This document shows, in pieces, positions 12,619-31,288 of a stretch of 32,000 nucleotides of DNA. Made by a program: the position numbers and the translations under genes. Under the pieces are notes generated by a model that was not told the DNA's origin, ran no database searches, and saw nothing but the letters and a program-made list of their open reading frames with translations. The stretch is from an uncultured delta proteobacterium. Lineage in GTDB: Bacteria; Myxococcota_A; Polyangia; Polyangiales; Polyangiaceae. The stretch covers positions 77,672 to 109,671 of the forward strand of contig CAVQAT010000003.1 of the NCBI GenBank assembly GCA_963710555.1. The letters run 5' to 3'. Position 1 is the first letter of the stretch, and each line of letters starts with the position of its first letter.

Positions 12619-12776
12619 GCCGAACGAGCCATTGCTACCTGACGGCGGTCGTAAAGGTTTCCGCTTCGCCTTGAGTTTGGTGTGCGGCCGCCGCCCATTC
12701 ACTCCCTTTGGTCGTGGCGGCCGGTCGGTGTATTCTGCAAGGCCTCGCGCCGCAGTAGAGCGGCAAGGCGTTGGGC
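12619..12776 (+). other. attC-1 (type A, 158 bp), R'' GCCGAAC, R' GTTGGGC
   Basis: Shares the type A body: ...GAGCCATTGCTACCTGACGGCGGTCGT...CGGCCGCC...GGCGGCCGG...GCGCCGCAGTAGAGCGGCAAGGC GTTGGGC. The arms are imperfectly complementary, with unpaired bases on the 5' arm. Confidence 0.8.
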
Positions 12777-12778
12777 GG

Positions 12779-13183
12779 TCACGGAACACATTCACCCTCG
12801 TCGTTACACTCACAGTAATTGGCACATTCGCATGCTGTGAAGCGGTCATGCTCCGCTTGACACTCACTCTGGCCACCTTCGAGCGACGAATACTCCGGCC
12901 CGGTCGCCAATCTTTCGCAAACGTACTCGGCACCAGCGGCGATTCGACATTGGATTTCTGCGATCGCTTCTCCAAGACATGGGTTCGGAAAGACATCCTC
13001 GCTCGCACAGAATTCGAGGCAAGGCTCCAGCGGCTCAGGGCAGTTCGTTGAAGCGGTACCTTCGAAATTGATGCGACACAGGGTGATGCATTGCCCCACA
13101 ACCTTCTCTCTTTCAGAGGATTCAGCGTTGCTACCGCAGGCCAGAGGCAAGGTCACCATCAGGAGAATTGCCGGCTTCATCAA
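12779..13183 (-). CDS. small cysteine-rich lipoprotein, inverted relative to the cassette array
   Basis: 134 aa. MMKPAILLMVTLPLACGS is a signal peptide plus lipobox. The mature part has 14 further Cys residues. The stop lies 3 nt from the attC-1 crossover. Confidence 0.6.
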   Translation of the reverse strand: MMKPAILLMVTLPLACGSNAESSEREKVVGQCITLCRINFEGTASTNCPEPLEPCLEFCASEDVFPNPCLGEAIAEIQCRIAAGAEYVCERLATGPEYSSLEGGQSECQAEHDRFTACECANYCECNDEGECVP

Positions 13184-13211
13184 AGCGACTGTATTCGGTC
13201 AAGTGAATGCC

Positions 13212-13300
13212 GTCTAACTGAGTCGTCCACTTCCTATCGACCGCGTTTGCCTAAGCGGACCGCTCCAGCGACCAGAAAGGTGATTTTTTAAGTGTTAGGT
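13212..13300 (+). other. candidate short attC (89 bp), R'' GTCTAAC, R' GTTAGGT
   Basis: It has exactly the R'' heptamer used by the type A attCs, and a complementary GTTAG core 82 nt downstream. The internal arms pair only imperfectly by eye, so this is tentative. Confidence 0.4.
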
Positions 13301-13351
13301 TTTTTTTGAGTGATGGGAACGACCTTGGTCGAGCACCAGACACCTTCCCCA

Positions 13352-13561
13352 GCGTTGCACTCGCCATTTGCACTCTGCCAGAGCTGCCAACGAGCGTTGC
13401 AGAGGGCATCTGCCCAGTGCCAGACCTGGCTGCGAGTGTTGCAACCCTCCTTGGCAGAGTGCCAGAAGCGTTCGCGTGTGTTGCAAAGCTCTCTGGCAGT
13501 GTGCCAGGGCCGCTCGCGAGCGTTGCAAACGTGTTTGGCAGAGTCCAACTCAGTGCGAGAG
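13352..13561. repeat. 5 x 42-bp tandem repeat (GYGTTGCA-N15-TGCCAG-N8-CGCGA)
   Basis: Units start at 13352, 13394, 13436, 13478 and 13520. The blocks GYGTTGCA and TGCCAG are conserved and the interior is variable. The region is open in five of six frames, which explains the pile of overlapping track ORFs at 13288-13718. Confidence 0.85.
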
Positions 13562-13562
13562 A

Positions 13563-13955
13563 TTACTCGGAAACATCCCAAGTGATTCGGTATTCACCCT
13601 GATCAGTCTGATAGACGAACGATACCTGCTCCGTGTTTACCGACAAATATCCGGAAGACACGATCTCTTTGCCGAGGCCGTCCCCCGCTGCTCCGCCAGA
13701 CGACGCGCCACCAATTGAATCGGCTTGCTCCAAATCTTCGCCGAATTGGTCGCATGTAAGAGTCCCCGCATTAACTATGCTTTGTCCATGGTCGTCCCAA
13801 TAGAACATCATCTCCCTGACCCCCGATGACGGAAGCTCCTTGATGCTGACATTGCCACAGCAATCCCCACAGCCAGGAAGTGCCGCACTCGCGACGAACG
13901 AGGCCATAAAAGTGGCGCCCAATATTGGTGACCGAACAAGTGTTGCGCAACTCAT
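13563..13955 (-). CDS. lipoprotein of unknown function (inverted cassette gene)
   Basis: The track ORF 13563..14009 is trimmed to the Met at 13955. MSCATLVRSPILGATFMASFVASAALPGC is a signal peptide plus lipobox. The start overlaps the upstream gene's stop in an ATGA junction. Confidence 0.6.
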   Translation of the reverse strand: MSCATLVRSPILGATFMASFVASAALPGCGDCCGNVSIKELPSSGVREMMFYWDDHGQSIVNAGTLTCDQFGEDLEQADSIGGASSGGAAGDGLGKEIVSSGYLSVNTEQVSFVYQTDQGEYRITWDVSE

Positions 13956-14236
13956 CGGCACACCCCATTGCGGAACTCGATGCGCGCCCCTGCCGCGTAA
14001 AGAAACCAATCGCCGTCAGAATAATTCAGACGGTAGTCGCCGTTCCAGATCGGAGCGTGATCACGCCTGCCTTCAAGCGTTTCCACGGACACCAAGGAAA
14101 GATCCCATCTCCCCACTTCGTCAGCACCACAGGTACAAGCAGAGGCTGGATTGGGGGATAGCAATTGCCCCAGAGCGGCTCCCACCGCCGCAACTAGCAG
14201 AACTAAACTGAGGTTGACCTTCTTTGAACGCGGCAT
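13952..14236 (-). CDS. small secreted protein of unknown function (inverted cassette gene)
   Basis: The track ORF 13952..14380 is trimmed to the Met at 14236. MPRSKKVNLSLVLLVAAVGAALGQLLSPNPASAC is a signal peptide. Its stop TGA overlaps the ATG of the next gene (ATGA), which suggests translational coupling. Confidence 0.5.
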   Translation of the reverse strand: MPRSKKVNLSLVLLVAAVGAALGQLLSPNPASACTCGADEVGRWDLSLVSVETLEGRRDHAPIWNGDYRLNYSDGDWFLYAAGARIEFRNGVCR

Positions 14237-14507
14237 ACTTGATAATAGAAGTTGTGATCGCCGCAGACCATCGCGATTCCGTTCTGCGCCTGAAAAGCCT
14301 AGCTCTCGGAAGAAACTCGTTCTTTGCACGCGAATCGGCAAAGTCTTGGGAGAGGGATGACCGCTTCTGGACGGTCGCACCGCGCGTAAAATGTGGCTCG
14401 CAAGCTAATCAGCGGCGTGCCTCAGATCAAAGGTGAGCAAGGGTAGAGCAAACCTAACGCGTGGTCGAACTCTCGTGCGATGTAATCGCGTGGTGGCTCA
14501 AGGTGCC

Positions 14508-14667
14508 CCCCAACGAGAAATTGCTGCTGACAGCGACTGCCTAGGTTTTCGCTGCGCTGGGAAGTTGTTGTTCGGCCGCCACTGGGCTTTCTCCCTTTTG
14601 TCGCGGCGGCCGGTCGGTGTAAACTGGTCGAGGCTCTGCGCTGCAGCAGAATTTCAGGGCGTTAGAC
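14508..14667 (+). other. attC-2 (type B, 160 bp), R'' CCCCAAC, R' GTTAGAC
   Basis: Type B body: CAACGAGAAATTGCTGCTGAC...CGGCCGCCAC...GCGGCGGCCGG...CTGCAGCAGAATTTCAGGGC GTTAGAC. Confidence 0.8.
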
Positions 14668-15866
14668 CGCACTTTCCCGCTTGCCCACTCACTCTTTGAT
14701 TGTGGCCGGCTATTCGGATCAATTGTTTGGGCTTAGCCCGCGCAGCGAGTTCGTTGCCGAGGGCGACGCTTTTTTGGAAGTGGGACTTTCGCGCGCGGGA
14801 GCAAGAATGATGAGCTGATCAACTTGGCTCACTTGCTCTGGGTGAGGGCTTCGCCCGCGTTTCCTGAACTGCGCCTCGCTGGTGGCAGCGCACGCTGGGA
14901 CGCCTGGATTGAATCGATGTTCCCTCGTCTCTTTCCGTCTGGTGTTCGCGCCTTTGTGATGGTCCGCCTTCAATCGCCTGGGCTCAGAGCTTCTTGGATG
15001 ACGTTCGCGCCCTCGTTGAGGTTTGAATTGCGTCGACTGTTGCTCGGATGGTCTCAAGACGCCCGCGCCATCTGGGTTTCTACAGCTTGTCGGTCAGCAA
15101 ATTGCTGCACCACTTTCGCCTCGCCGAGAGTTGCGGCCCTTCGGGCCGTTTCGGTGCTCTCGAAGCCAGCCTCTCCGAGGATTCTGGCGGGCGCGGGCTC
15201 GTGAATTTCGGGCGCTGAAGGGCGCTCAATGGAGATGGCGTGCTTTTTGAAGAGGCTTTCGACCTTCCCGTGAAGGCGTCATCGCGGGCGGATCGCCCAG
15301 CTGTCGTCAGAACCTGTTGTGCCAACTTTGCTCTGCAGTGAGTGCGGTTCACGGGCTGGTGAAGTCAGTGTGCGGCTGTCCTCGCGGAGCGGCGCTGTTT
15401 CATCGACTGGATGCGCGCTCTTTCCAGTCATCTTTTTATGCCAGGTGCACTGGCAAGATCACTGCCGTTTGCGCGGACTCGTTCTGGGCAAGCTCTTCTG
15501 AACTGATGAACTCGTGTCGCTCGTTGTCTTCGAACGGCCAGCGCGCTGGCAAATGATCACCGGCGCCTCAGACGCTTTTGCGAAGTCAGAACGGAAGCGT
15601 GAGTCGTCGGCCAACTGCCGTTTTGGCGCCTGCATCTAGCCGTTTGATTCCTGCTGAGCCCGGTGTGGTCTCACCTCCTCGCGCGCTGATGCCTCCTGAA
15701 ACTGAGGGAGTCGGTCTAACGAGCCGCTGCTACCTGACGGCGATCGTTAACGTTGTCGCTTCGCTGAAACTTGGCAGTTCGGCCGCCACCGGGCCTTGTC
15801 CCTTTTGTCGCGGCGGCCGTTCGGGGTAACCTGCGAGGCCTCGCGCCGCAGTAGAGCGGCAAGGCG
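14662..15866 (+). mobile_element. integron cassette L1 (1205 bp), ORF-less L family
   Basis: Bounded by the G|TT crossovers of attC-2 and attC-3. Paralogous to L2-L5. Track ORFs on both strands are not frame-conserved between copies. Confidence 0.75.
14885..15120. repeat. phased ~59-bp degenerate tandem units in L1
   Basis: Units start at 14885, 14944, 15003 and 15061. Each opens with G(C/T)(A/T/C)CGCGCC-like sequence followed by TCGTKGAGG / TGGATTG / CGATGT-like blocks. Confidence 0.7.
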
Positions 15867-15872
15867 TTAGAC
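15714..15872 (+). other. attC-3 (type A, 159 bp), R'' GTCTAAC, R' GTTAGAC
   Basis: GTCTAACGAGCCGCTGCTACCTGACGGCG...GCGCCGCAGTAGAGCGGCAAGGC GTTAGAC. Confidence 0.85.
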
Positions 15873-17072
15873 CGCACTTTCCCGCTTGCCCACTCACTCT
15901 TTGACTGTGGTCGACTATTCGGATCAATTGTTTGGGGTTAGCCCGCGCAGCAAGTTCGTTGCCGAGGGCGAGACGTTTTTGAGTGATGGACTTTCGCGCG
16001 CGGGAGCCAGAATGATGAGCTGACCGACTCGGCTCAGTTGCTCTTGGTGAGGGCTTCGCCCGCGTTTCTTAAACTGCGCCTCACTGGTGGCAGCGCACGC
16101 TGGAACGCCTGGATTGAGTCAATGTTTCCTCGTTTCTTTCCGTGTGATGTTCGCGCCTTCGTGGTGGTTCACCTTAGGTCGCCCAGGCTCAGAGCTTCTC
16201 GGGTGACATTCGCGCCCTCGTGGAGGTTTGAATTGCGTCGAGCGTTGCATGGGGTTCCCAAGACACCCGCGCCATCTGGGTTTCTACAGCTTGTCCATCA
16301 ACAAACTGCTGCGCCACTTTCGCCTAGCCGAGAGTTGCGGCCCAGCGGGCCGTTTCGGCTGTCTCGAAAGCAGCTGGGTCGATGATTCTGGCGGGCGCGG
16401 GCTCGTAATTTTCGGACGCTGAAGGGCGCTCGATGGAAAGGGCGTGCTTTTTGAACAGCCTTTCGACCTTTCCGTGAGTGCGCCATCGCGGGTCGAGGCG
16501 CCCCCGCTTTCTTCAGAATTGGTTGCGCCAACTTTGCTCTGCATGAAGTGCGGTTCGCGGGCTGATGAAGTCAGCGTGCGGCTGTCCTCGCGAAGCGGCG
16601 TTGTTTGTTCGACTGGATGCGCGCTCTTTTCAGTCTTCGTTTTATGCCAGGTGCACTCGCAAGATCACTGCCGTTTGCGCGGGCTCGTTCTGGGCAAGCT
16701 CTTCTGAACTGATGAACTCGTGTCGCCCGTTGTCTTCGAACGGCCAGCGCGCTGGCAAGTGATCACCGGCGCTTTAGACGCTTTCGCGAAGCAATCAGTT
16801 TGGCGTGGGCCGTCGGCCACCTCCCGATTTCGCGCCTGCAGCTAGCCAGCTGATTTCGGCTGAGCCCACCGTGGTCTCACCTCCTCGCGCGCTCATGCCT
16901 CCTGAAACTGATGGAGTCGGTCTAACGAGCCGCTGCTACCTGACGGCGGTCGTGAACGCTGTCGCTTCGCTGGAACTTGGCAGTTCGGCCGCCACCGGGC
17001 CTGGTCCCTTTTGTGGCGGCGGCCGTTCGGGGTAACCTGAAAGGCCTCGCGCCGCAGTAGAGCGGCAGGGCG
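15867..17072 (+). mobile_element. integron cassette L2 (1206 bp), ORF-less L family
   Basis: Same module order as L1. It has frameshifts relative to L1 in every candidate frame. Confidence 0.75.
16090..16320. repeat. phased ~59-bp degenerate tandem units in L2
   Basis: Units start at 16090, 16149, 16208 and 16265. Confidence 0.7.
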
Positions 17073-17078
17073 TTAGAC
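16920..17078 (+). other. attC-4 (type A, 159 bp), R'' GTCTAAC, R' GTTAGAC
   Basis: Same type A body as attC-3. Confidence 0.85.
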
Positions 17079-18275
17079 CGCACTGTCCCGCTTGCCCACT
17101 CACTCTTTGATTGTGGTCGGTTCATTAGATGACTTTGTTTGGGCTAAGCCCGCGCAGCAAGGTCACTGCCGATGTTAAACTGTTTTGAATGTGGTTGTTT
17201 CGCGCGCGAGAGTGAAAATGATGAGCTGTTCAACTTGACTCACTTGCTCTGGGTGAGGGCTTCGCCCGCGTTTCTTAAACTGCTCCTCGATGATGCCATC
17301 GCACGCAGGGACGCATGGATTGAGTCGAAGTCCCCTCGCCTTTTTTCGGTTGATGTTCGCGCCGTCGTGGTACTTCCGCTTCAGTCGTCCGGTCGCAGGG
17401 CTTCTCGGGTGACGTTCGCGCCCTCGTGAAGGTTCAAATTTCGTCGAGCGTTGCGTGTGGTTTTCAAGACGCCTGCGCCATATGGGTTTCTACAGCTTGT
17501 CGGTCAACAAACTGCTGCGCCACTTTCGCCTCGCCGGGAGTTGCGGCCCTTCGGGCCGTTTCGGTGCTCTCCAAGGTAGCCTCTCCGAGGATTCTGAAGA
17601 GCGCGGGCTCGTGAATTTCGGGCGCTGAAGGGCGCTCAATGGAGAGGGCGTACTTTTTAAACAGTCTTTCGACCTTTCCGTGAGTGCGTCATCGCGGGCG
17701 GAACGCCCAGCTTTCAGCAGAATCTGTTGCGCCAACATTGCTCTGCATGAAGCGCGGTTCGCGGGCTGGTGAAGTCAACGTGCGACGGTCCTCGCGAAGC
17801 GGCGTTGTTTCATCGACTGGATGCGCGCTCTTTTCAGTCTTCGTTTTCCGCCAGTTTCGCTGGCAAGATCACTGCCTTTGCGCGGGCTCGTTCTGGGCAA
17901 GCTCTTCTGAACTGCTGAATCTGTGGTGCTAGTTGTCTTCGAACGGCCAGCGCGCTGGCAAATGATCACCGGCGCCTCAGACGCTTTCGCGAAGGAGTAG
18001 ATTTGTGCTGAGTCGTCGGCCAACTGCCGCTTTGGCGCCTGCAGAAAGCCCTTTAATTCCTGCTGAGCCCGATGTGGTCTCACGTCCTCGCGCGCTGAGG
18101 CCTCCTAAAACTTTTGGAGTCGGTCTAACTAGCCGCTGCTACCTGGCGGCGGCCGCAAACGCTTTCGCTTCGCTGAGAGTTGGCAGTTCGGCCGCCACCG
18201 GGCTTTCTCCCTTTTGTGGCGGCGGCCGTTCGGTGTAACCTGCAAGACCTCGCGCCGCAGTAGAGCGGCAAGGCG
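17073..18275 (+). mobile_element. integron cassette L3 (1203 bp), ORF-less L family
   Basis: Same module order as L1 and L2. Confidence 0.75.
17295..17530. repeat. phased ~59-bp degenerate tandem units in L3
   Basis: Units start at 17295, 17355, 17414 and 17471. Confidence 0.7.
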
Positions 18276-18281
18276 TTGGGC
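18123..18281 (+). other. attC-5 (type A, 159 bp), R'' GTCTAAC, R' GTTGGGC
   Basis: GTCTAACTAGCCGCTGCTACCTGGCGGCGG...GCGCCGCAGTAGAGCGGCAAGGC GTTGGGC. Confidence 0.85.
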
Positions 18282-18677
18282 AGAGAGAGGGGCAATGAAT
18301 ACGGCAAAGGTTATCGTCGTTCACACTCTTTGTTTCGCACGGTGCAGCCTGTCCGTTTTGGCCTAAAGAGATGTTGACTCACCATTTGGGTCATTGTCAT
18401 CACCAACAAGGTCCATGTGTCGTAAGTCAGTCCCGGTGCTTGATATCCGAATCGCTACATTGACCACCTCAAGATGAGGTTCAAATCTTCCCCCCCTAAG
18501 TGGTCTCGATTCGCTTGTCGTTCAGACCAGGACCGGCTAACTCTCAAGACCATTTGCCTGGCAATCCCTCCATGGAGTCTGCGCTGACCCGACAGCGAAC
18601 TGCAACGAGACCGAAGATGTTCAGGTATTCCTCGGCCAACGTGGTTGAGTCCTTAGATGCTGAACTAGAAAACTCAA

Positions 18678-19736
18678 ATGATCAAAACCAACTTGAAGAC
18701 CGGAACGCTCGTAATTGCTGTGGGCGTTCTGCTTCTCGCCGTCGCGTGTGGCAACAACTCCGTCGACGACAATAATGTTGACACCACAGGCGGGCAATCC
18801 TCGGACAGTACGTCTTCAGGTGGAAGTTCCAATGGAGGACAGACCTCCGACGGCGGAGAATCGGCGAGCGGCGGCTCTAGTGGTGGGACGGAAGGAAACG
18901 GCACCGGTGGCAAATTCGGCATTGGAGGCGATTCTTCTTCCGGTGGACAGGCAACGGGCGGTGCCGTCGGTGACCAACCCATTGGTACGTTGGGTGAGCC
19001 TTGTTCATCGCCAGGTGTGTTTGCCTGCGCAGATGTGAATCCCAAACTCGCCCTCTTGTGCGGAAGTGATAAACGCTGGGAGGCGCGGGAGACTTGTGAT
19101 GGTGACGAGCTCTGCGATTCGAACGAAGGCCCCGCACTGGGAACGTGCCGCTCGCAGCTTCCGGAATGCCAAGCGGGCACCGCTAAGTTTTGTGATGGTG
19201 ACGCGCTAGTTGTGGAATGCGCCGAGGGTGGGTTCGATACGCAGGTCGTTGAAGAGTGCGGAAGCGGCTTTGGCTGCCGCGATGGCTTCTGTGTGGGAGT
19301 CGATGACCCGTGTCCGGAGGACGCTGTGCGCATCGAGAATTGCACAGATGAGGCTTGCGGCACCAAGTCACCTCCACGTTGCTTTTCTTCATTAGACTGT
19401 GACTACGTACATGCTGGCGTCTCCGTGTACCCCACCGGCCAAGTTGCCTTTCGGCTCCCCTTCGAAGACCTGTGTTCCTCGAGCTGTGGTCATGCTCGCT
19501 ATGCGGTGACCTTCAGTTCAGTTGAAGGAATGGCGGCAAAGGTAACAGTGGGCCCGGGTTGGGGAATGTCGACAGTCGGTCCTAGTGCGTGCGACGACAT
19601 CGTCGAAAAGTGCATTGTGCTTCCACCGAACCAAGTTGATGAGAGTTGGATTTTGTATCTGACGCTCCTTGCCCAGCATGCCGTAACTCGCAACCTGATG
19701 GTCGAAGCTGTTCCGCCGGGTACCACGTGCGACTGA
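18678..19736 (+). CDS. cysteine-rich lipoprotein with a G/S-rich linker (unknown function)
   Basis: 352 aa. The lipobox is LLLAVACGNN. About 90 aa of G/S/T-rich linker follow. The C-terminal domain has regularly spaced Cys residues (CSSPGVFAC...CGSDKRWEARETCDGDELC...CRSQLPEC...FCDGD...VEC...CGSGFGCRDGFC). Confidence 0.75.
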   Translation: MIKTNLKTGTLVIAVGVLLLAVACGNNSVDDNNVDTTGGQSSDSTSSGGSSNGGQTSDGGESASGGSSGGTEGNGTGGKFGIGGDSSSGGQATGGAVGDQPIGTLGEPCSSPGVFACADVNPKLALLCGSDKRWEARETCDGDELCDSNEGPALGTCRSQLPECQAGTAKFCDGDALVVECAEGGFDTQVVEECGSGFGCRDGFCVGVDDPCPEDAVRIENCTDEACGTKSPPRCFSSLDCDYVHAGVSVYPTGQVAFRLPFEDLCSSSCGHARYAVTFSSVEGMAAKVTVGPGWGMSTVGPSACDDIVEKCIVLPPNQVDESWILYLTLLAQHAVTRNLMVEAVPPGTTCD

Positions 19737-19856
19737 TATAGTATCGTGAGTGAACTTCACCGATATCGAGAGACTTCAGACCTTCTAGACGCATCTTGCT
19801 ATTCGATTGATGACGTTATCTCCGATAGCTCGAACGTTCACGACAACTAAGCTCCT

Positions 19857-20012
19857 GCCCAACAAGCAATTGGTGACCGACGGCCACTGTCCGGGTCCTC
19901 GCTTCGCTGGAAGGTTTGCGTTCGGCGCTCGCTCCTTCCCCTTTGGGGATGAGCGCCGGTTGTCGTATGCTGTTGAGGCCTCAGGCCGCGGCACAATTGC
20001 AGGGCGTTGTGC
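19857..20012 (+). other. attC-6 (divergent, 156 bp), R'' GCCCAAC, R' GTTGTGC
   Basis: The arm AAGCAATTGGTGACCGACGGCC pairs with GGCCGCGGCACAATTGCAGGGC. The central part has the same stem-like layout. Confidence 0.7.
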
Positions 20013-21428
20013 TGATCTGGCCCGCTTGCCCGTCGACTTTTTCCGTCAAAGTGCAGTTGCGTTCATTGTTTGGAAGACGGCCCGCGCACTTGGGGTTGTT
20101 CGAGTTCACAATGTTTTCTTGAGAGAGCTTTCGCGCGCGATGAGTTGGACTGGAAACTGTTCGAATTGGCTCGACAGCTCTGACTGTGGGCTTCGCCCCC
20201 TTTCTCAAATTGCTCCTCGTTTGTGCTCGCGCCCTCGTGAAAGCCTGGATTGCATCGATGTAACCTCGACTCTTTCCAGCTGACGCTCGCGCCCCCGTGG
20301 AGTTTTGGATTGCGGCGACCTGGTCTCAAACTGTTCCGGATAACGCCCGCGACCTCAGCACGGCTTGGATTGAATCGAAGTTATCTCGTGTTCGGTTGGC
20401 TGACGTCCACGCCCTCCACAAGCTTCATTTCGCGACCTGCTAAGAAGGCATCAAGACATTCCCGCTGTGCTCGATCCACGGGCTCGCCTCGCCCGAATCT
20501 CGGCCCACCTGCTCGCCTCGCCTGTTGCCGATTTCGCCCTATTCATTTTTTGAGTGCGAAGTCATGACGATGACTGCAATCGCGTCGCTCCGGCAACACG
20601 CTCCTGACTTTTCGGGCTTCGCCCTCATTCCGCAATCTGAATCCGCCTCTTCTGGCGCGGGTCGTGGCTAAGTAACCACCGTTAGCATTCTCAAAATCTA
20701 GAGGTCCCAAAGCGCGGGCTCGTGAACTCGGGCGCTAAACGGCGCTCAAGAACTGACGAGCAATTCACCTTTTCGGGAAGAGAACATCGCGGGGAAGTGA
20801 GCACGTGGATTGTTGAATTGTCACCATTTGAGGTCGGCTGATTTTCCGAAGTGAAAGTTCCCGCTCACCTCGGAGTCCTTGCGTCATTCGCATATTTTGG
20901 TTTGGCCTTTTTTTCGGGCTGATCATTCCAGCTTGAACAGCCTCTTGTTAGTCGATGTCTTTCCGACGACTGACTGCGCGCTCGTGGCAGCGGACTTCGA
21001 GCAAGGTGAGAACCTTGCCATGACCGGATCCATTGCGCGGTCCCTGATTAAGGCAAGCTCTGCTGAACAGCTGAACTCGTGGTGGTTCAACGTCTTCGAC
21101 CGGCGAGCGCGCTTGCAAAGGACGACTGGCGCCTTCCCCTGCTCTTTCATGCTCAACAACTTTCTCCAAGACCACAAAGTCATCACAGCCAAGGCGCCGA
21201 ATCCACGCCTCCTACTCGTTGCTGCACTCGTCGTGGGTCGTTTTCTCGCGCGCTTTTGCCTGCAGGCATCGACGGCCACCACAACGAGAAATTGCTGCTG
21301 ACTACTGAGAGGTTTTCGCTGCGACGCCGGGTTTTGGTGCGGCCGCCACCGGGCTTTATTCCTTTTGTGGCGGCGGCCGGTCGGTGTAAACTGGTCGAGG
21401 CCCTGCTGGGCAGCAGAATTTCAGGGCG
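20007..21428 (+). mobile_element. integron cassette S1 (1422 bp), ORF-less S family
   Basis: Starts TTGTGCTGATCTGGCCCGCTTGCCC and ends with a type B attC. Paralogous to S2-S4 and homologous module by module to the L family. Confidence 0.75.
20225..20464. repeat. exactly phased 60-bp degenerate tandem units in S1
   Basis: Units start at 20225, 20285, 20345 and 20405, an exact 60-nt register. Example unit: GCTCGCGCCCTCGTGAAAGCCTGGATTGCATCGATGTAACCTCGACTCTTTCCAGCTGAC. Confidence 0.8.
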
Positions 21429-21434
21429 TTAGAC
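21279..21434 (+). other. attC-7 (type B, 156 bp), R'' CCACAAC, R' GTTAGAC
   Basis: CCACAACGAGAAATTGCTGCTGACTACTGAGAGG...CTGCTGGGCAGCAGAATTTCAGGGC GTTAGAC. Confidence 0.85.
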
Positions 21435-22630
21435 CGCACTTTCCCCCTTGCCCACTCACTCTTTGATTGTGGCCGGTTCATTAGATGACTTTGTTTGGGC
21501 TAAGACCGCGCAGCTAGGTCGTTGCCAAAGGCGCACTGTTTTGGATGTGGTTCTTTTCGCGCGCAAGGGCGAGAATGGCGAGCTGTTCAACTTGGCTTAC
21601 CTGCTCTGGGTGAGGACTTCGCCCGCTTTTCTTGAGTTGCTCCTCGATGATGCCATCGCACGCTGGGACACCTGGAAAGAGTCGATGTTACCTCGTCTCT
21701 TTCCGTATGATGTTCGCGCCTTTGTGGTGGTTCGCCTTCAATCAGCCAGACTCAGAGCTTTTCGGGTGACGTTCGCGCCCTCGTTGAGGTTTGAATTGCG
21801 TCGACTGTTGCTCGGATGGTCTCCAGACGCCCGCGCCATCTGGGTTCTACAGCTTGTCGGTCAGCAAACTGCTGCACCACTTTCGCCTCGCCGAGAGTTG
21901 CGGCCCTTCGGGCCGTTTCGGTGCTCTCGAAGCCAGCCTCTCCGAGGATTCTGAAGAGCGCGTGCTCGTGAATTTCGGGCGCTGAAGGGCGCTCAATGGC
22001 AAGGGCGTGCTTTTTGAAGAGGGTCTCGACCTTTTCGTGAATGCGTCATCGCGGGCGGAGCGCCCAGCTTTCATCAGAATCAGTTGCGCCAACATTGCTG
22101 TGCATGAAGTGCGTTTCGCGGGCTGGTGAAGTCAGCGTGCGGCTGTCCTCGTAGAGCGACGTTGTTTCATCGCCTGGATGCGCGCTCTTTCAGTCTTCGT
22201 TTTCTGCCAGTTTCGCTGGCAAGATCACTGCCTTGCGCGGGCTCGTTCTGGGCAAGCTCTTCTGAACTGATCAGCGCGTGGTGCTTGTTGTCTTCGAACG
22301 GCCAGCGCGCTGGCAAATGATCACCGGCGCCCTATCCGTTTTCGCGAAGTCACAGCGTTATTCTGAGTCTTCGGCCAAACGCCGGTTTGGCGCCTGCAGC
22401 TAGCCAGCTGATTTCTGCTGAGCCCACCGTGGTCTCACTTCCTCGCGCGCTGATGCCTCCTGAAACTGATGGAGTCGGTCTAACGAGCCGCTGCTACCTG
22501 ACGGCGGTCGTGAACGCTGTCGCTTCGCTGAAACTTGGTAGTTCGGCCGCCACCGGGCCATGTCCCTTTCGTCGCGGCGGCCGTTCGGGGTAACCTGAAA
22601 GGCCTCGCGCCGCAGTAGAGCGGCAAGGCG
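21429..22630 (+). mobile_element. integron cassette L4 (1202 bp), ORF-less L family
   Basis: Same module order as L1-L3. It lies immediately upstream of the SEFIR/TIR cassette. Confidence 0.75.
21652..21888. repeat. phased ~59-bp degenerate tandem units in L4
   Basis: Units start at 21652, 21712, 21771 and 21829. Confidence 0.7.
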
Positions 22631-22636
22631 TTAGCT
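22478..22636 (+). other. attC-8 (type A, 159 bp), R'' GTCTAAC, R' GTTAGCT
   Basis: Type A body. The crossover G is at 22630. Confidence 0.85.
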
Positions 22637-22643
22637 AGACACC

Positions 22644-24083
22644 ATGACAGCACCAAAACTCTTCATTTCCTATTGCTGGTCATCTCCCGATCATGAGCAG
22701 CGTGTGCTCGACCTCGCTACCGAACTTCGAGAATCGGGAGTTGAAGCAATTCTCGACAAGTGGGACCTACGCGAAGGGCAGGATGCCCATGCATTCATGG
22801 AATCAATGGTCACCGACCCCACTGTCACGAAGGTACTTCTGGTTTGTGACCTCGCATACGTAGAGAAGGCAAACTCACGTGCCGGTGGAGTAGGTATCGA
22901 AACACAGATTCTCACGCCGGAACTCTACAAGACCGTGGATCAAACAAAGTTCGTTGCTCTGGTGCTTGAGCGCGACGAGAACGGCAAGCCTCTGGTTCCA
23001 GCCTACTACAGCTCGCGAATTCACATCGACTACTCGGAATCGGCGAAGCAATCTGACTCGTTCGATCAACTCCTACGCTGGGCTTTCGACAAACCGCTTC
23101 ATCAAAAACCCAAACTGGGTACGATGCCCGTGTTTCTGGCGGACAATTCCGCTCCAACGATTAGTACTACCGCCGCATTGCGACGAGTTGTGCATGCGTT
23201 ACGCGAGGGCAGAGGAAACTGGTCCGCGCTCTGTACCGAATACCTAGAGGTCTTCGCGACCCAAATGGAAAATTTCCGAGTATCGGACCCAGAAGAACCC
23301 CGAGATGAGCCCTTCATGTCGAACATTGAAGCCTTTACTCCGTATCGAAATGAGGTCATCAGTCTGCTCGACGAAGTTGCACTGCATAAATCAGGAAGCT
23401 CGCTCGCCGATCTGCTTCATGAATTCTTTGAACGGATCCTCGGGTACAACTTCCGACCTCCAGGGACTGGCTCGTGGCGCGAGACAGACTTCGACAACTT
23501 TCGCTTCATCACTCACGAATTATTCCTCCTTACAATAGCGCTACTCGTTCGGCGAGACCGATTTGAAGAGGTGTCGAACCTACTTGATCGCGAGTATTAC
23601 TGTCCGGTCCTTGCGGATATGGGAAAGACTGACGTGCTCACGTTTCGAGCATTCCGAGGAAACATTCAGCTGCTAGATCATCGTAACGAACGGCTCAACT
23701 TGCATCGATTATCCCTTCACGCAGACACTTTGAAGAGCCGATGCGTCGACATCCCCGTAACCTTCCAGCAAATGATGCAGGTCGACTTTCTCCTCTTTCT
23801 TCGCGGTGCTTCGGAACCATCAGGATGGGGATTTGGATGGTGGCCCGCCACACTGGTGTATGCATCCGATAGCTTCGCTTCCAGGTTCGAAGTGTTTGCA
23901 CGCTCAAGATCAAAAAACTACTTCAGCAAGATTGCCCCGCTCTTAGGGGTCAAATCACTCGAGCAATTCAAGGAGACTGTCGTGCGCTTCCAGTCAGGCG
24001 AACTGAAGGCTCCGAAATGGCAATTTGAGACCTTGAACGTCGCCGCCCTTTGCGGGCTCGATGAACTCGGAATCCGCAGTTGA
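22644..24083 (+). CDS. SEFIR/TIR-like (STIR superfamily) domain protein with a ~340-aa C-terminal domain of unknown function; candidate anti-phage effector
   Basis: 479 aa. The N-terminal ~135 aa read KLFISYCWSSPDHEQRVLDLATELRESGVEAILDKWDLREGQDAHAFMESMV...VLLVCDLAYVEKANSRAGGVGIETQIL...KFVALVLERD. This matches the FISYSH...H..WV..L...L...G..V.LD.W and GGVG-x-E pattern of bacterial SEFIR/TIR-like domains. It is a single-gene cassette, with the ATG 14 nt after the G|TT crossover. Confidence 0.8.
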   Translation: MTAPKLFISYCWSSPDHEQRVLDLATELRESGVEAILDKWDLREGQDAHAFMESMVTDPTVTKVLLVCDLAYVEKANSRAGGVGIETQILTPELYKTVDQTKFVALVLERDENGKPLVPAYYSSRIHIDYSESAKQSDSFDQLLRWAFDKPLHQKPKLGTMPVFLADNSAPTISTTAALRRVVHALREGRGNWSALCTEYLEVFATQMENFRVSDPEEPRDEPFMSNIEAFTPYRNEVISLLDEVALHKSGSSLADLLHEFFERILGYNFRPPGTGSWRETDFDNFRFITHELFLLTIALLVRRDRFEEVSNLLDREYYCPVLADMGKTDVLTFRAFRGNIQLLDHRNERLNLHRLSLHADTLKSRCVDIPVTFQQMMQVDFLLFLRGASEPSGWGFGWWPATLVYASDSFASRFEVFARSRSKNYFSKIAPLLGVKSLEQFKETVVRFQSGELKAPKWQFETLNVAALCGLDELGIRS

Positions 24084-24118
24084 ACGAGAATCGTGCCACA
24101 ACGTCATTCTGAATCGCT

Positions 24119-24277
24119 AGCTAACTGGCCATTGCTACCTGACGGCAGGCGTGAAGGTTTTCGCTTCGACACAAGCTCATCGTTCGGCCGCCACTGGGTT
24201 TTCTCCCTTTGGTCGTGGCGGCCGGTCGGTGTATTCTGAAAGGCACAGCGCCGCAGTAGAATGGCAGGGCGTTAGAC
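24119..24277 (+). other. attC-9 (type A variant, 159 bp), R'' AGCTAAC, R' GTTAGAC
   Basis: GCTAACTGGCCATTGCTACCTGACGGCAGGCGT...GCGCCGCAGTAGAATGGCAGGGC GTTAGAC. Confidence 0.8.
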
Positions 24278-25583
24278 TGATCTGCCCCGCTTGCCCGCTA
24301 ACTTTTGATCGTCAGGGTTTGAGTTGATCATTCGTTTCATAGGCAGCCCGCGCAGCTGAGGTCGGTCGATCTCGCAATGTTTTCGTGAGGAAACTTTCGC
24401 GTGCGATCAGTTTGATTCAAAGCTGTGCAACTTCGCTCGATTGGTCTCGAATGGGAAGTCGCCCGTTTTCGTGATTGCTCATCGTTTGAGTCCGCGCCGG
24501 TCTCAGGAGCCCGACTTTGTCGTTGTACAATCGATGCGCCCAGCTGACGCCCGCGCCCAGCGAGCGTGGCATTGTCGCCGGGTTCCGACAACTTTCGTCT
24601 GATGCCCGCGCCGTCATGGAGCGTATTGGTTGGGTGGACTTGAGGGTTGCCTCGGGCCAGCAGACAGTTGCTGAGAGCACGAACGCTTCGATTTTCTTTC
24701 TTGTTTTGGTCGCCGTGAAGCCGAGTTGGTTGGCGTCGCCCTTCAGATTTGTAGCGGTGCAGGTTCAAAGGCAGGGACTGTTGTCTCTCGGCGCAGACGA
24801 CGGGCTCCTCTCGAAAGCGGGTTCGGTCCCTTCTGGCGCGGGCCAGCGGATTTCGGCGGCGCGGGCTCTTTGACTTGGGCGCTGAACGTCGCTCAATCAC
24901 CAACATGTTGTCGGCTTTTCGTGATCAGATCATCGCGAGGAAATGGGTTCGTGGATTGCTTCCGGTTTGCCAGTTTTTGGTGGTTGTTTTTTTCGAATTG
25001 ATGGTTCCCCGCTTCTGTCGCAAGCATCGATTTCACTTCTGTTTTTGTTTGGCCCAATTCACGGGCTTAGCTTGGTCAGCGTCCACTGCATCTCGCTGAT
25101 CGTCGGCGTCTCGCTGAATTGGCGTCGCGCTTTTGGTTGTTCACTGTTTCCTGAATAATGCTTTGCCGAACTGATCAAGGTCCGCGCGAGCTCTTGATTC
25201 GGGCAAGCTCTGCTGAACAGTTGAACTCGTGAGGGCAAAATGTCTTCGGCCGGCGTGCGCGCTTGCGAATGATCAGCGGCGCCTTCCCCTTCCCCGCGTC
25301 GGACCACTCACGTGCCAGATGTTTCGTGAAATAATCAGCTTGGCGCCTATTCCGTGCCTCCTGCTCGTCCCTTCACTCATCGTGGAAAGCTTTGTTGCGC
25401 GCAATGGCCTCCAGAAAAACTGATACGACAGTCTAACGAGCCGCTTCTACCTGACGGCGGTCGTGTAGGCTTTCGCTTCGCTGCAGCTTGGCAGTTCGGC
25501 CGCCACCGGGCTTTCTCCCTTTTGTGGCGGCGGCCGTTCGGGGTAACCTGAAACGCACAGCGCCGCAGTAGAGCGGCAAGGCG
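24272..25583 (+). mobile_element. integron cassette S2 (1312 bp), divergent ORF-less S-family member with a type A attC
   Basis: The leader is TTAGACTGATCTGCCCCGCTTGCCC. It has the same module order (CG palindrome region, phased units, GGCGCT-N4-GTCGCT, GGCAAGCTCTGCTGAACAGTTGAACTCGTG block) but is more diverged. Confidence 0.65.
24490..24660. repeat. phased ~55-59-bp degenerate tandem units in S2
   Basis: Units start at 24490, 24549 and 24604 (GTCCGCGCCGG..., GCCCGCGCCCAGCG..., GCCCGCGCCGTCATGGAG...). Confidence 0.6.
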
Positions 25584-25589
25584 TTGTGC
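25431..25589 (+). other. attC-10 (type A, 159 bp), R'' GTCTAAC, R' GTTGTGC
   Basis: Type A body. The crossover G is at 25583. Confidence 0.85.
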
Positions 25590-26923
25590 TGAGCTGGCCC
25601 GCTTGCCCCTCATCCTTTGACTGTGAAGGTTCGCTTGAACGATTTGTTAAGGAGGTGGCCCGCGCATTCGGATTCTTCCGAGGTCGCCATGTTTTCTTGG
25701 GAGAGTTTTCGCGCGCGATGAGTTCTACCCAAAAACTGTTTGTCTTGCCTGGACTGCTCTGAATGTGGGCTTCGCCCGCGTTCTTAAGTTGCTCCTCGTT
25801 TGTGCTCGCGCCCTCGTGGAGGCCTGGATTGTGTCAATGTAATCTCGTCTCTGTCCGGCTGACGCCCGCGCCCTCGTGGAGATGTGGATTGCGGCGATGT
25901 CGTCCCGACTCTTTTCGATTGACGCCCGCGCCCGCATCGCGCGTTTGGATTGAGTAGATGTAACTTTCAGGACGTCCCCGCCCTCTTTGAGTCTACATCT
26001 TGTCGTTCAAGCACATTGTGGCAGCTGGTTCCCTCGGCTAGTTGCTGCTTCCTGTAAGCGTTGGGTCGGTTTTTGGAATACTGCTGAAACAAATGTTTCT
26101 GCCGCCTCGAAACGCTTCTTTCGGCTGAGAAATCGCTGTTTATGTCGCGGACCGCGTACAAGTTAACGCCGTTAACTTGCTCAAAGGCTTGAGAATTCGA
26201 AAGCGCGGGCTCGGGACTCGGGCGCTGAGTGGCGCTCAAGGACCGATGAGCGTTTCACCTTTTCGTGAAGAGAGCCGCACGGGGACGTGAACTCGATGAT
26301 TGTGGAAGAGTCACCGTCGGAGTGACAGGTTTCTCCGAAGTGGAAGCCCCCGCTCATTGCGAAGGCGTTTGCAGGGTCGACTTCTTTTGTTTGGCCTGTT
26401 TCGCGGCCTGCCTTTTGCCAGCTTGAACAGCCTCTTGTCAGCCGACACCATTTCGAGGACTGATTGCGCGCTCTTGCGTCGCTTCTTTTGATCACGGCGA
26501 GGCTTTTGCCAAGACGGGTCCCCTTCTGCGCGGGCCCTTGAATTTGGGCAAGCTCTGCTGAACAGTTGAACTCGTGGTGGCTCAACGTCTTCGACCGGCG
26601 AGCGCGCTTGCAAAGGACGACTGGCGCCTTGCCCTGCTCTTTCATGCTCAACAACTTTTTCCGTGACCACAAAGTCATCACAGTCAAGGCGCCGAATCCA
26701 CGCCTCTTGCTCGTTGCTGCGCCCGTCGCAGGTCGTTTCCTCGCGCGCTTTTGCCTGCAGGCATCGACGGCCACCACAACGAGAAATTGCTGCTGACTAC
26801 TGAAAGGTTTTCGCTGCGACGCCGGCTTGTGGTGCGGCCGCCACCGGGCTTTATCCCTTTTGTCGCGGCGGCCGGTCGGTGTAAACTGGTCCAGGCCCTG
26901 CTGGGCAGCAGAATTTCAGGGCG
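25584..26923 (+). mobile_element. integron cassette S3 (1340 bp), ORF-less S family
   Basis: Paralog of S1 and S4. It has a 4-nt length difference relative to S1 inside the best candidate frame. Confidence 0.75.
25804..26020. repeat. phased 60-bp degenerate tandem units in S3
   Basis: Units start at 25804, 25864, 25924 and 25974. Units 1 and 2 share GC(T/C)CGCGCCCTCGTGGAG. Confidence 0.8.
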
Positions 26924-26929
26924 TTGTGC
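26774..26929 (+). other. attC-11 (type B, 156 bp), R'' CCACAAC, R' GTTGTGC
   Basis: Near-identical to attC-7 apart from the R' core tail. Confidence 0.85.
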
Positions 26930-28109
26930 TGAGCTGGCCCGCTTGCCCGTCGACGTTTTCCGTGAGGGTTTGTCGCGATCATTTGTTTAAGGGACGGCCC
27001 GCGCATTCGGGGTTGTTCGAGTTCGCAACGTTTTCTTGAGAGAGATTTCGCGCGCAATGAGTCCGACCAGAAACTTCTCAAGTTAGCTCACCTGCTCTGC
27101 ATGAGGGCTTCGCCCGCGTTCTTAAGTTGCTCCTCGTTTGTGCTCGCGCCCTCGTGAAAGCCTGGATTGTGTCGATGTAAGCTCGACCTTCCCGGCTGAC
27201 GACGCGCCCTCGTGGAGACTTTGCTCGCGGCGATGAAGTTCCAAATCTTTCCGGGTGACGCCCGCGCCTGCAGCACGATTTGAATTGTTTTCGGGTGGCT
27301 CTCAAGACTTCCGCGCCACCTTTGGTTCTACTTCTTGTCGTTGCACCAAGTTGCGACAACTGTCTAGCTCGGCTTATTGCTGCTTATTGCCGACGTGGGT
27401 TCGAATTCTGGAACGCTGCAGGGACGATGATTCTTTGCCGCCTCGAAAGTCTTCGTTCGATCATCAAATTATCGTTTCCGGCGCGAACGCGTCAAAGTCT
27501 TCATCGTTCACATCTTCGAAATCTTGAAGGGTCAAAAGCGCTGGCTCGCATACTCGGGCGCTAGATGGCGCTCAAGAACTGACAAGCGATTCACCTTTTC
27601 GTGGAGAGAGCATCGCGGGAAAGTGAGCACGTGGATTGTTGAATTGTCATCCTTTTGGATTCGTTCGTTCTCCAGAATGAAACCTCCCGCTCGTGTCGAC
27701 CGTGTTGCGACATCAGTAATTTTTTGTTTGGCATTTTCGCGGGCTGTTCATTCCAACTTGAACAGCCTCTTGTCAGCCGAAGTCTTTCCGAGACTGATCG
27801 CGCGCTCGTGACAGCGGACTTTGAGCAAGGTGAGAACTTTGCCATGACCGAATCCATTGCGCGGTCCCTGATTGAGGCAAGCTCTGCTGAACAGCTGAAC
27901 TCGTTTTGGTTCAACGTCTTCGACCGGCGAGCGCGCTTGCAAAGGACGAGCGGCGCCTTCCCCTGGTCTTTCCTGAGCAACAACTTTGTTCGACATCGCA
28001 AAGTCATCACAGCGAGGCGCCTAATCCACGCCTCTTGCTCGTTGCTGCACTCGTCGTGGGGCGTTCTCTCTCGCGCTTTGGCCTACAGGTATCGACGGCC
28101 ACCACAACG
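26924..28109 (+). mobile_element. integron cassette S4, ORF-less S family; its attC is interrupted by the IS91-like element (remainder at 30670-30816)
   Basis: Colinear with S1 and S3 up to CGACGGCCACCACAACG (ending 28109). Homology then resumes at 30670 (CAACGAGAAATTGCTGCTGAC...). Confidence 0.75.
27142..27365. repeat. phased ~59-bp degenerate tandem units in S4
   Basis: Units start at 27142, 27201, 27260 and about 27309. Confidence 0.7.
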
Positions 28110-28433
28110 GAATAGGGTTTTCGCGGTGACGGGGGTAAGGGAGCTCGCGACCGTCCGCCGGCCAGCGCTAAAACCTCTGTTGAACAACCCGCCTTCAGCT
28201 ACGCGTGAGTAGAGAAGCCACTTGGTGATTTGCTTTCATTTGTGACTCACTGGTGAGCGCTAGCGAGCGGCCCCCAAGCGCAGGTTGCGATCCTACGGAG
28301 CTGTTCTTGAGCAATAACTGACCGGTGAGAGGGGCTCGACGGTTGAAATCTCGCGACACGACCGACGCGACGCGCACGGGTGCATTCACGCACGTTACGC
28401 GCGTCCGAATGGAGTCGCTCCCCGCAGGCTTGT

Positions 28434-29633
28434 TCATGCGACTCTCCCAATGGTCAAGGTCTCCGTCCGTGGTGGCCCTCGCGCTTTCGCAAGTCCGGGC
28501 TCGCCCGCGCGGTTCGTCATGGCTTCGGCCCATGCACCACATTCAGCAGCGTCTAAGCGGCGACCGATCGCCAGAGATAACATTCCGCATGCTGGGCAGC
28601 GAGCTAGTTGAGGAGTTTGGTTTTCCGGCCGCGAGTCCTTCACGGCTTCTTGCGTCTGGCGTGAGCGGCTCAGCAGCAGTTGCAAACGCTGCAGTTTACT
28701 TCTGTGCTGGGGATGCAAAAGCCCGAAGCTCCGCACCCGGTGAAAGCCCTTGGGCGGCACGTGCTGAAGAAAACGTCTCAAGAATTCATTTACCGGCAGA
28801 GTCATCTGCTTGCGCTCGTGAGTACGACTGTCCGTGTAGCGGAAGGTGACCCTGTGCTCATCTGAAGCTAACACCGCGTGATTGCCAATGGCCGTCTTGT
28901 GCACGTAGCGACCTAGATATTCGATCACCTTCTCGGCTCCCTGCACGACGGGCTTGGCAAAAGTGATCCAAGGCTTATTTGCTGGCACCGACGGCATTTC
29001 TCCTTTGGGCAAGGCCTTGCGCGCGAGCGCCATGAAGCGCCCACGAAACTTCTTGGACAGCGCAGGAACGGGGACCAAGTAGCGTTTCTTTCGGCGAGGT
29101 GCTGTGAGCCACGTCTCTCCATCCGCGGCGACGCCTCCTCCGGGCACGAGCATGTGTACGTGCGGGTGCCACTCCAGAGTGCGCGTCCACGTGTGCAGCA
29201 CTGCGAGGGCGCCGATGAGCTGAGCGCCCAAGAAGTGTGGGTCTTGGCAAAGCTCGGCCAGCGACTCATAGGCGGCTCGAAACAAGACTGGCAGCAGCAC
29301 CGTCTGCTTGGAGCGCACCACGTCGCGCAGCTCGCTTGGCAGCGTGAAGACGACGTGAAAGTACGGCACGGGAAGCAATAGCTCGCGCTGACGCTCAATC
29401 CATTGAGTCGTTCGCAAAGTGCCGCACTGAGGGCAAGCCCGATGGCGGCACGAATGGTAGAGCAAGTGCTGCGAGTCACAGCTCTCACAATGCGCGAGGT
29501 GTCCACCTAGCGCTGAAGTGCGACAAACGCTGATTTTTCCGATTGCTCGCACATGACTTGGCAGCACGGCGTCACCGTAACGCTCCAGATAGGCTGGACC
29601 ATGCTGCCTCACCACTTCGGCGAGGAGACTCAT
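28434..29633 (-). CDS. tnpA: IS91-family rolling-circle (HUH, Y2) transposase
   Basis: 399 aa. The N-terminal zinc-binding region is HCESCDSQHLLYHSCRHRACPQCG. The HUH motif is WHPHVHMLVPGG. The C-terminal tyrosine motif is YLGRYVHKTAI. Confidence 0.9.
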   Translation of the reverse strand: MSLLAEVVRQHGPAYLERYGDAVLPSHVRAIGKISVCRTSALGGHLAHCESCDSQHLLYHSCRHRACPQCGTLRTTQWIERQRELLLPVPYFHVVFTLPSELRDVVRSKQTVLLPVLFRAAYESLAELCQDPHFLGAQLIGALAVLHTWTRTLEWHPHVHMLVPGGGVAADGETWLTAPRRKKRYLVPVPALSKKFRGRFMALARKALPKGEMPSVPANKPWITFAKPVVQGAEKVIEYLGRYVHKTAIGNHAVLASDEHRVTFRYTDSRTHERKQMTLPVNEFLRRFLQHVPPKGFHRVRSFGLLHPQHRSKLQRLQLLLSRSRQTQEAVKDSRPENQTPQLARCPACGMLSLAIGRRLDAAECGAWAEAMTNRAGEPGLAKARGPPRTETLTIGRVA

Positions 29634-29643
29634 GGCGCGGCCG

Positions 29644-30531: not shown

Positions 30532-30669
30532 CGCGCCGCCGCCTATGGAAAGCGTGAATCACTGAGCGCAGTGGCACTCCTCAGAGTCATGAGCAGCTTC
30601 GTGGCAGGCTCAAGATGAACTAAACGGACGCAATGAGCCCAAAGCTACCGTGCGCAGCGCGGTTTCGTT

Positions 30670-31275: not shown

Positions 31276-31288
31276 CTGCTGATAGTTG

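Follow-up and report, generated by a model that had tools for sequence, protein, structure and literature searches.

Integron cassettes that lack an open reading frame (ORF) can carry promoters or a small RNA (sRNA) in its place (PMC8876359; bioRxiv 10.1101/2023.11.21.568050), and in a Vibrio study a cassette was taken as gene-less when it held no ORF longer than 70 amino acids (aa) (bioRxiv 10.1101/2023.11.21.568050). Here we describe a family of gene-less cassettes in a 32,000-nucleotide (nt) stretch of DNA from an uncultured delta proteobacterium (contig CAVQAT010000003.1, positions 77,672 to 109,671 of the forward strand; hereafter the window, meaning the whole stretch). The family shares with the ORF-less cassettes of the Treponema oral metagenome, the promoter cassettes of the Vibrio superintegron and sRNA-Xcc1 of Xanthomonas the attC-bounded configuration and the absence of a protein gene, and those cassettes have been proposed or shown to act via transcription. 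It departs from them in that its members are 1.2-1.4 kb long, are paralogous to one another, make up most of the array and bear conserved blocks throughout; each also holds an internal tandem array of 59-60-nt units, and a complementary leader and trailer that occur around real genes as well. Gene-less cassettes are usually treated as short promoter carriers or junk; in the present case a single long non-coding family with internal organisation occupies the greater part of the array of a chromosomal integron. In the literature searched, we found no description of long, paralogous gene-less cassettes that have a tandem array inside them and a leader-trailer frame in common.

The internal array and the complementary ends each recall other described systems. 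Plasmid iterons are near-identical direct repeats of about 17-22 bp, placed in helical phase beside a rep gene and an AT-rich/DnaA-box region, and the F sopC centromere array consists of twelve 43-bp repeats with an inverted repeat in each. The arrays of the cassettes likewise consist of units in direct tandem order that share a conserved core and contain small inverted repeats (ATTG-N3-CRAT and CCTC-GTG-GAGG), but the unit is 59-60 bp rather than 17-22 bp, conservation from unit to unit is poor (51-73%), and the units are out of phase with the DNA helix. Genes for Rep, ParB or SopB are missing, as are an AT-rich region and DnaA boxes, and the cassette does not replicate alone, so that the iteron-like nature considered in a preliminary description of this DNA is not supported in the form given there. 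In the ToxI/ToxN system, the ToxI repeats are 36 nt long, nearly identical and followed by the toxin gene; those, too, are tandem non-coding repeats on a mobile element, but in the present family the units have diverged to the extent just given and no toxin gene is found. In the processing stalks of ribosomal RNA (rRNA) operons and in the pairing of 5' and 3' untranslated regions of messenger RNAs, a conserved leader pairs with a conserved trailer. A comparable layout, which would amount to a long-range clamp, encloses a variable cargo, ORF or non-coding, in the integron cassettes, where the helices are short and interrupted and could form in RNA or in single-stranded DNA. Finally, GOLLD, ROOL, OLE and HEARO are RNAs of hundreds of nt, also on mobile DNA and also made of short helices or blocks split by variable inserts; in contrast to them, the family has no Rfam match, shows covariation in a few helices only and is found in one narrow clade.

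The window contains a chromosomal integron. Its array runs rightwards and adjoins intI and attI, and its cassettes are bounded by attC sites of about 150 nt, in which R'' (RYYYAAC) is GTCTAAC or CACAAC and R' (GTTRRRY) is GTTAGAC or GTTGTGC. The cassettes meet at G|TT crossovers, at 12771, 14662, 15867, 17073, 18276, 20007, 21429, 22632, 24272, 25584, 26924 and 30817, and the initial 6-8 nt of each one covary with its own R'' (helix 1: AU in 11, GC in 3, CG in 1, and others). The closest database relatives of IntI carry the name "integron integrase", and the nearest named ones belong to metagenome-assembled genomes of Acidobacteriota and Myxococcota, with about 62% identity. Nine of the 13 cassettes are gene-less paralogs, five of a type that we call L and four of a type that we call S. 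They have no codon phase, no kept reading frame, no protein relatives and no Pfam match, and they align end to end, with pairwise identities of 79-89% among L copies, about 75% among S1, S3 and S4, and 53-59% between L and S. No tRNA genes were found in the window. The elements needed for what follows are these (loci outside the window, such as L013, bear three-digit numbers):

9964-10986, minus strand: intI, the gene of the integron integrase, an integron-type tyrosine recombinase (Pfam Phage_integrase and Phage_int_SAM_4)
about 11441: attI, GACAATTGGTAG|TT, with a junction that aligns with the attI junction of locus L013
14662-15866, plus strand: cassette L1, gene-less, L type; array 14885-15085, with U1 at 14885, U2 at 14944, U3 at 15003 and a core-only fourth start at 15061
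15867-17072, plus strand: cassette L2; unit array about 16090-16290
17073-18275, plus strand: cassette L3; unit array about 17296-17495
20007-21428, plus strand: cassette S1, gene-less, S type; units at 20225, 20285, 20345 and 20405 (array 20225-20464), leader about 20007-20180, trailer about 20950-21279, attC about 21280-21428
21429-22631, plus strand: cassette L4; unit array about 21653-21853
24272-25583, plus strand: cassette S2, more diverged than any other copy; array about 24490-24660, its units 59 and 55 nt apart and matched only weakly by the profile
25584-26923, plus strand: cassette S3; units at 25804, 25864 and 25924 (array 25804-25975)
26924-28105, plus strand: cassette S4; unit array about 27142-27312, its attC (30670-30816) being separated from it by an IS91-family insertion (28106-30669)
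30817-32000, plus strand: cassette L5, truncated at the window edge; array about 31041-31240

The unit array lies in the 5' third of the cassettes, and its periodicity is real, old and in part probably functional. CGCGCC anchors occur 2 nt downstream of the unit starts that the preliminary description had given, at 20227/20287/20347/20407 in S1, 25806/25866/25926 in S3 and 14946/15005/15063 in L1, which reproduces its registers of 60/60/60, 60/60 and 59/58, respectively. The landmark blocks that it listed (TGGATTG, CGATGT, CTCG, CTTTCC and TGAC), the decay towards the 3' units and the total of about 33 units (nine cassettes with 3-4 units each) were likewise recovered. Its statement that every ORF-less cassette contains units is right for the nine paralogs but not for the cassette at 12771-14661, in which no gene was recognised and which has no units. 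Tested against shuffled sequences, the autocorrelation peak at lag 60 reached z 7.5 in S1 and z 7.1 in S3; in the other copies the peak was at lag 55-60 with z 2.9-4.9, compared with a mean maximum of z 2.6 in the shuffles, such that L1 and L4 are only marginal by autocorrelation alone. Tandem Repeats Finder at default settings reported the S3 array only (25807-25933, period 60, 79% matches), the other arrays being too degenerate for it. A profile made from 34 units found three units per cassette (four in S1) at cassette positions of about 220-400, with E down to 5e-14, and no additional units elsewhere in the window on either strand; the units of S2 are strongly decayed and matched with E of only 0.02-2.5. 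A 59-nt period across the entire cassette was not found, the peak in the conservation profile being borderline and at about 68 nt.

Units of one cassette are 51-73% identical to each other, whereas the unit at a given position is 81-83% identical across the L-type copies, which indicates that the units diverged from one another first and were then inherited individually; the units are an old triplication and not an array of equivalent modules. Their lengths are 58/59 nt in L copies and 60/57/59 nt in the L013 relative, and their number varies from 2-3 to 4 among the S lineages. A hairpin within the unit was considered and rejected, as the RNAalifold consensus was an open chain on both strands, whether 33 units or 14 copies of U1 were folded, and two hand-picked intra-unit helices (the purine against the pyrimidine tract, and ATTG-N3-CRAT) were no better than shuffles.

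What has been retained of the units is a junction core of about 22 nt, which recurs every 58-60 nt in each array:

20281-20302, plus strand: a junction core of S1, TGACG-YYCGCGCC-CTCGTGGAG

Across eight L-type copies, identity is 0.90-0.92 in the unit cores and 0.68-0.80 in the unit interiors (0.68-0.76 in those of U2 and U3), and it falls to 0.52-0.66 in the least conserved stretches of the cassette. Four-fold degenerate sites are about 80% identical between the genome of the window and that of locus L020, and the comparison with this value places the cores under purifying selection, and most of the unit interior outside it. The cores and the register of 57-60 nt persist in three diverged lineages, namely L, S and the L013 cassette, and at least three cores are kept in all 13 of the full copies. 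When TGACGYYCGCGCCCTCGTGGAG was searched with up to three mismatches, it gave 10 matches in the window against a chance expectation of 0.01, all on the plus strand and all within gene-less cassettes.

The cores also take part in a polarity of the cassette. YCGCGCC/CCCGCGY boxes are almost confined to the first 400 nt or so (about 76, 193, [221], 285, 344 and 401), three or four of them being the unit cores, and the complements of these boxes are almost confined to the region past position 520 or so. In this way the cores supply three or four same-strand GCCCGCGCC boxes that are complementary to GGCGCGGGC-type boxes found only in the 3' half; no antisense targets of the core were found elsewhere in the window. 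One such partner is in the block that we number 11:

20700-20750, plus strand: block 11 of S1, GCGCGGGCTCGTGAA-CTCGGGCGCT-AAAC-GGCGCTCAA, which holds a box complementary to the unit cores

The box is GCGCGGGC in S1 and the complete 10-mer GGGCGCGGGC in L1, L2, R1 and R2. GCCCGCGCCC, the S-type core, and GGGCGCGGGC are fully complementary, and the S copies themselves retain only the 8-nt centre, GCGCGGGC, of the latter; L-type cores (GTTCGCGCC) would need two G.U pairs in order to pair with block 11.

Conserved blocks extend along the whole length of the cassettes, and those of the 5' side are complementary to those of the 3' side in nested order:

5' block GCTTGCCC, with 3' block GGGCAAGC
5' block (A/G)GCCCGCGC, with 3' block GCGCGGGC(T/C)
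5' block GCGCGC, with 3' block GCGCGC
5' block GCCCGCG, with 3' block CGCGGGC

Within the trailer, GGCSWGCGCGC pairs with GCGCGCWS..GCC and GGCGCC with GGCGCC. The leader-trailer helices are short (6-11 bp) and interrupted. Over 15 cassettes, 93.4% of the cells of the leader-trailer and trailer helices are paired, compared with 28-47% after displacement of the partners by 1-3 columns. Covariation scored 0.167, where shuffles scored 0.086 +/- 0.009 and none of 500 reached 0.167, with part of the signal supplied by the attC helix. The pair 75-288 is AU in nine cassettes and GC in six and is never broken; the pair 356-509 is CG in seven, GU in three, UG in two and GC in one. The two variable pairs of the trailer helix take the types C-G, G.U, U.G and G-C in one case and A-U and U-A in the other, and the coding cassette L018-B retains this helix with its register shifted by one base. 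Consensus folding of an 11-copy alignment gave an energy far below that of column shuffles, with z -5.7 on the plus strand and z -7.2 on the minus strand. We regard block-wise long-range pairing as supported; a rod-like fold of the whole cassette was rejected, the single-sequence energy being unremarkable and block-wise complementarity alone being supported.

Between the paired blocks some copies carry inserts. Where the L copies have a loop of 8 nt closed by the stem GCGGG/CCCGC, this stem closes an insert of about 60 nt in the S copies, and the insert (20790-20860 in S1, with corresponding stretches in S2-S4) again contains CGTGGATTG, the motif of the units. In L5 (about 31290-31350) and in copy T1 of L024, an insertion of about 58 nt stands beside the apical hairpin, which is GGCCC-TTCG-GGCC in the other L copies and in L5 has a compensatory change from G-C to A-T and a TGCG loop.

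The leader and trailer are not exclusive to gene-less cassettes. At locus L018, whose IntI is 77% identical to that of the window, two coding cassettes have the same leader of about 170 nt and trailer of about 330 nt as the L and S cassettes and have no units:

L018, 3250-4549 and about 400-1556, both minus strand: the two coding cassettes, one with a 187-aa ORF without Pfam match and the other with BrnT/BrnA; complementary block pairs retained

Both leader and trailer are found in one and the same cassette, and the neighbouring cassettes have neither. To judge by this distribution, the pair looks like a reusable cassette frame. The 187-aa ORF had no match in the window by tblastn.

The sense strand of the gene-less copies has an excess of T over A, with AT skews of -0.19 to -0.30 in all nine, compared with -0.07 to +0.08 elsewhere in the window, with values close to zero in the coding cassettes, the IS91-family element and the flank. 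Such an excess would be unnecessary for a simple duplex binding site. In the helices tested, G.T cells outnumber A.C cells by 29 to 19, and in the trailer helix by 7 to 1; these counts lean to the top strand, although on a T-rich strand they are not decisive. At L018 the frame encloses genes in the sense orientation, and in the BrnT/BrnA cassette the leader is the sole upstream sequence inside the cassette; toxin-antitoxin cassettes of chromosomal integrons are known to carry their own promoters. Taken with the T skew and the G.T lean, the sense genes of L018 and the BrnT/BrnA leader are explained most economically by a sense transcript whose untranslated ends would be paired.

We therefore favour, with a probability of about 0.35, the possibility that the cassettes encode a sense-strand structured non-coding RNA whose ends would be clamped by leader and trailer and in whose 5' domain the cores would be reiterated boxes. 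The 59-60-nt periodicity in the 5' third of the 1.2-1.4 kb gene-less cassettes goes back to an old tandem duplication into three or four units; according to this proposal, transcription of the sense strand would yield an RNA of about 1 kb whose 5' leader would pair with its own 3' trailer; since leader and trailer frame real genes in the related integron, they would act there as untranslated regions. The units are no longer equal modules, and selection keeps the 22-nt or so junction core, with the GCCCGCGCC cores possibly serving as reiterated docking sites for a protein or else for the 3' GGCGCGGGC boxes, with which they would form several long-range helices, or alternative ones. More tentatively, the family may represent an undescribed class of structured non-coding RNAs of about 1 kb that moves as an integron cassette, with the leader-trailer clamp as a modular frame for expression or processing that would also serve coding cassettes, and with the GCCCGCGCC cores as a multi-site docking region. 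The clamp might define and stabilise, or release, transcripts of single cassettes.

Several results weigh against the structured RNA. The cassette sequences represent only about five independent lineages, and the pair counts are inflated because the structure tested had been derived from these very sequences. Single-sequence folding energies are unremarkable (z -0.3 to -1.6), the covariation term in the consensus fold of the whole cassette is only -0.85 kcal/mol, and the alignment signal is as strong on the minus strand, which fits inverted repeats at the DNA level equally well. With 29 G.T against 19 A.C cells on a T-rich strand, the assignment of the strand cannot be firm. Consensus scans of leader and trailer found no sigma-70-type promoter above the level of shuffles, the consensus perhaps not being that of the host, and no convincing terminator, nothing exceeding the shuffles. 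As for the cores, no helix containing them shows two-sided change; their partner, block 11, is almost invariant, so compensatory change cannot confirm this pairing, and three or four cores contend for this one perfect partner.

Some of the same observations would be explained if the cores were reiterated protein-binding boxes in double- or single-stranded DNA, whether as sites accessory to IntI or to some host factor, or as an array resembling a centromere or a transposon end, that aid the excision, integration or upkeep of the cassette. We regard this as possible but somewhat doubtful. It would account for the spread of the family, which occupies nine of 13 cassettes here and two of about five at L020, and for its place at the first position, that of the most recent insertion, in a related integron (confirmed in three of five contigs, L013-L015); the polarity of the boxes, forward at the 5' side and reverse at the 3' side, is as at transposon ends, the core is conserved as sequence without a unit hairpin, and the complementarity signal is equal on both strands. 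However, a spacing of 59-60 bp corresponds to about 5.7 helical turns, which puts successive cores on different faces of the helix, the cores are unlike the R or L boxes of attC, and no gene for a binding protein is carried by the cassette. The strong T-over-A skew is not expected of a duplex site either, and the leader-trailer frame is common to ordinary coding cassettes that have no units. Slightly less likely, in our opinion, is that the periodicity is a mere relic of a single tandem triplication decaying in a largely selfish non-coding cassette, with units that have no role of their own and a core conservation unrelated to repetition. The divergence of the units within a cassette, greatest in the 3' ones, their near-neutral interiors (0.68-0.76) and the variable unit number of the S lineages are in agreement with decay, as is the identity of 86-87% between the L cassettes of the two genomes, which, set against about 80% at four-fold sites, means that overall constraint on the cassette is weak. 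Decay alone does not predict that the cores equal the best blocks of the cassette in conservation (0.90-0.92), that the 58-60 register is retained in three lineages otherwise 55-70% identical, or that no full copy of the 13 has fewer than three cores.

The two remaining explanations concern the product of the units. That these descend from a gene, now frameshifted in all copies, whose protein product contained 20-residue repeats is very improbable. It is true that the exact 60-nt register in S1 and S3 leaves one frame open through the units (APSWRxGLxxCxxxSxRLTP), that about 100 codons are open in one plus-strand frame of most L copies and that the leader has a Shine-Dalgarno-like remnant. Nevertheless, substitutions among the paralogs have no three-base phase in any ungapped block, six-frame maps of open frames differ between copies, the open stretch of the L copies diverges at the neutral rate in its amino acids and is broken by stops in S copies, and units of 57-59 nt shift the frame in L copies and L013, while conserved blocks persist across the lineages without any frame. 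The preliminary description had itself remarked that the frame of a 20-codon repeat is not conserved between paralogs, and with unit lengths of 58/59 nt in L copies such a repeat fails; the intact translated relative that might have spoken for it was sought with HMMER among 1.84 billion (1.84e9) representative proteins and not found, the search returning only two ORFs that had been spuriously called in these cassettes themselves, and a eukaryotic repeat protein matched by chance. Under the strict rule of the Vibrio study the cassettes would be excluded from the gene-less class, since GC-rich DNA gives them chance ORFs of 80-198 aa. There is, then, no tandem-repeat protein gene with a single open frame, codon-phased substitutions and homologs; nor is the array a CRISPR, as noted before, for the interiors are homologous between units and the repeats are not near-identical with unrelated spacers. 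Least credible of all is a ToxI-like role, as in type III toxin-antitoxin systems, in which a repeat RNA would be cut into monomers of about 60 nt that neutralise a toxin encoded elsewhere. The units are tandem and on the sense strand, and the integron also has toxin-antitoxin or defence cassettes (bSEFIR here, BrnT at L018), but the layout of a repeat-RNA antitoxin, to which the arrays had been likened, is not supported, given the strong divergence between units, the lack of a conserved unit fold and the lack of an endoribonuclease ORF in or beside the cassette and of any ORF, within it or after it, that matches a family. Rfam 15 at the gathering threshold had no match over the whole window and, at E<=5 over 14600-28200, one match at chance level only; the cassettes belong to no described RNA family, attC-targeting group II introns included.

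Outside the window, related cassettes with units were found in four other loci. L020, whose flanking DNA is about 90% identical to that of the window, has two L-type cassettes, and L024, from the same metagenome, has one L-type copy and one mosaic S-type copy, together with the same IS91-family insertion. An integron with an IntI 78% identical is represented by five contigs from different samples, and the unit-bearing homolog is the first cassette in the three of them that extend far enough, L013-L015, as partial copies after attI (L013:1-457, L014:4-252 and L015:5-140); each of these contigs terminates inside the cassette. Repeated cassettes probably break short-read assemblies, so the family is likely under-sampled. 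Exact-pattern scans of GTDB genomes and JGI metagenomes gave chance matches only, two strict-pattern scans of viral contigs and a blastn search of plasmids gave nothing, and the family was absent from four further IntI relatives (L021, L023, L025 and L026-L028); as single strict patterns were used, such absence is weak evidence, and in the data searched the family looks confined to one narrow clade.

Within that clade the family has been retained in species whose flanking DNA is about 90% identical, and in the related integron it holds the position of the most recent insertion. The reuse of the complementary leader and trailer around genes suggests that some integron lineages give their cassettes a common cis-acting frame. 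Should this frame work in RNA, it matters for the expression or processing of cassettes that lie a long way from the integron promoter; should it work in DNA, it matters for how certain cassettes gain mobility at the expense of others. In either case, the 22-nt cores and the block pairs are concrete sites to mutate.

The mosaic copy of L024 (2707-3917, minus strand) is 94% identical to S4 in its 3' half, whereas its 5' half, units included, is only about 73-76% identical to any S copy, which points to recombination between paralogs. The IS91-family transposase gene (28434-29633, minus strand) and a tyrosine recombinase gene (29644-30531, minus strand) sit within R'' of the attC of S4, and the insertion that contains them (28106-30669) is 94% identical to that of L024. 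At L020, the interval from intI to attI contains a MarR-family gene and a 165-aa ORF (8601-9787), neither of which occurs in the window. The 1.9-kb cassette at 12771-14661 has ORFs without Pfam match and another degenerate tandem repeat (13416-13544, period 42, 3.1 copies, 69% matches), and may be a further gene-less cassette. Directly downstream of L4, the cassette at 22632-24271 encodes a 479-aa TIR/SEFIR protein that matches the bSEFIR defence model of PADLOC (E 6e-105).

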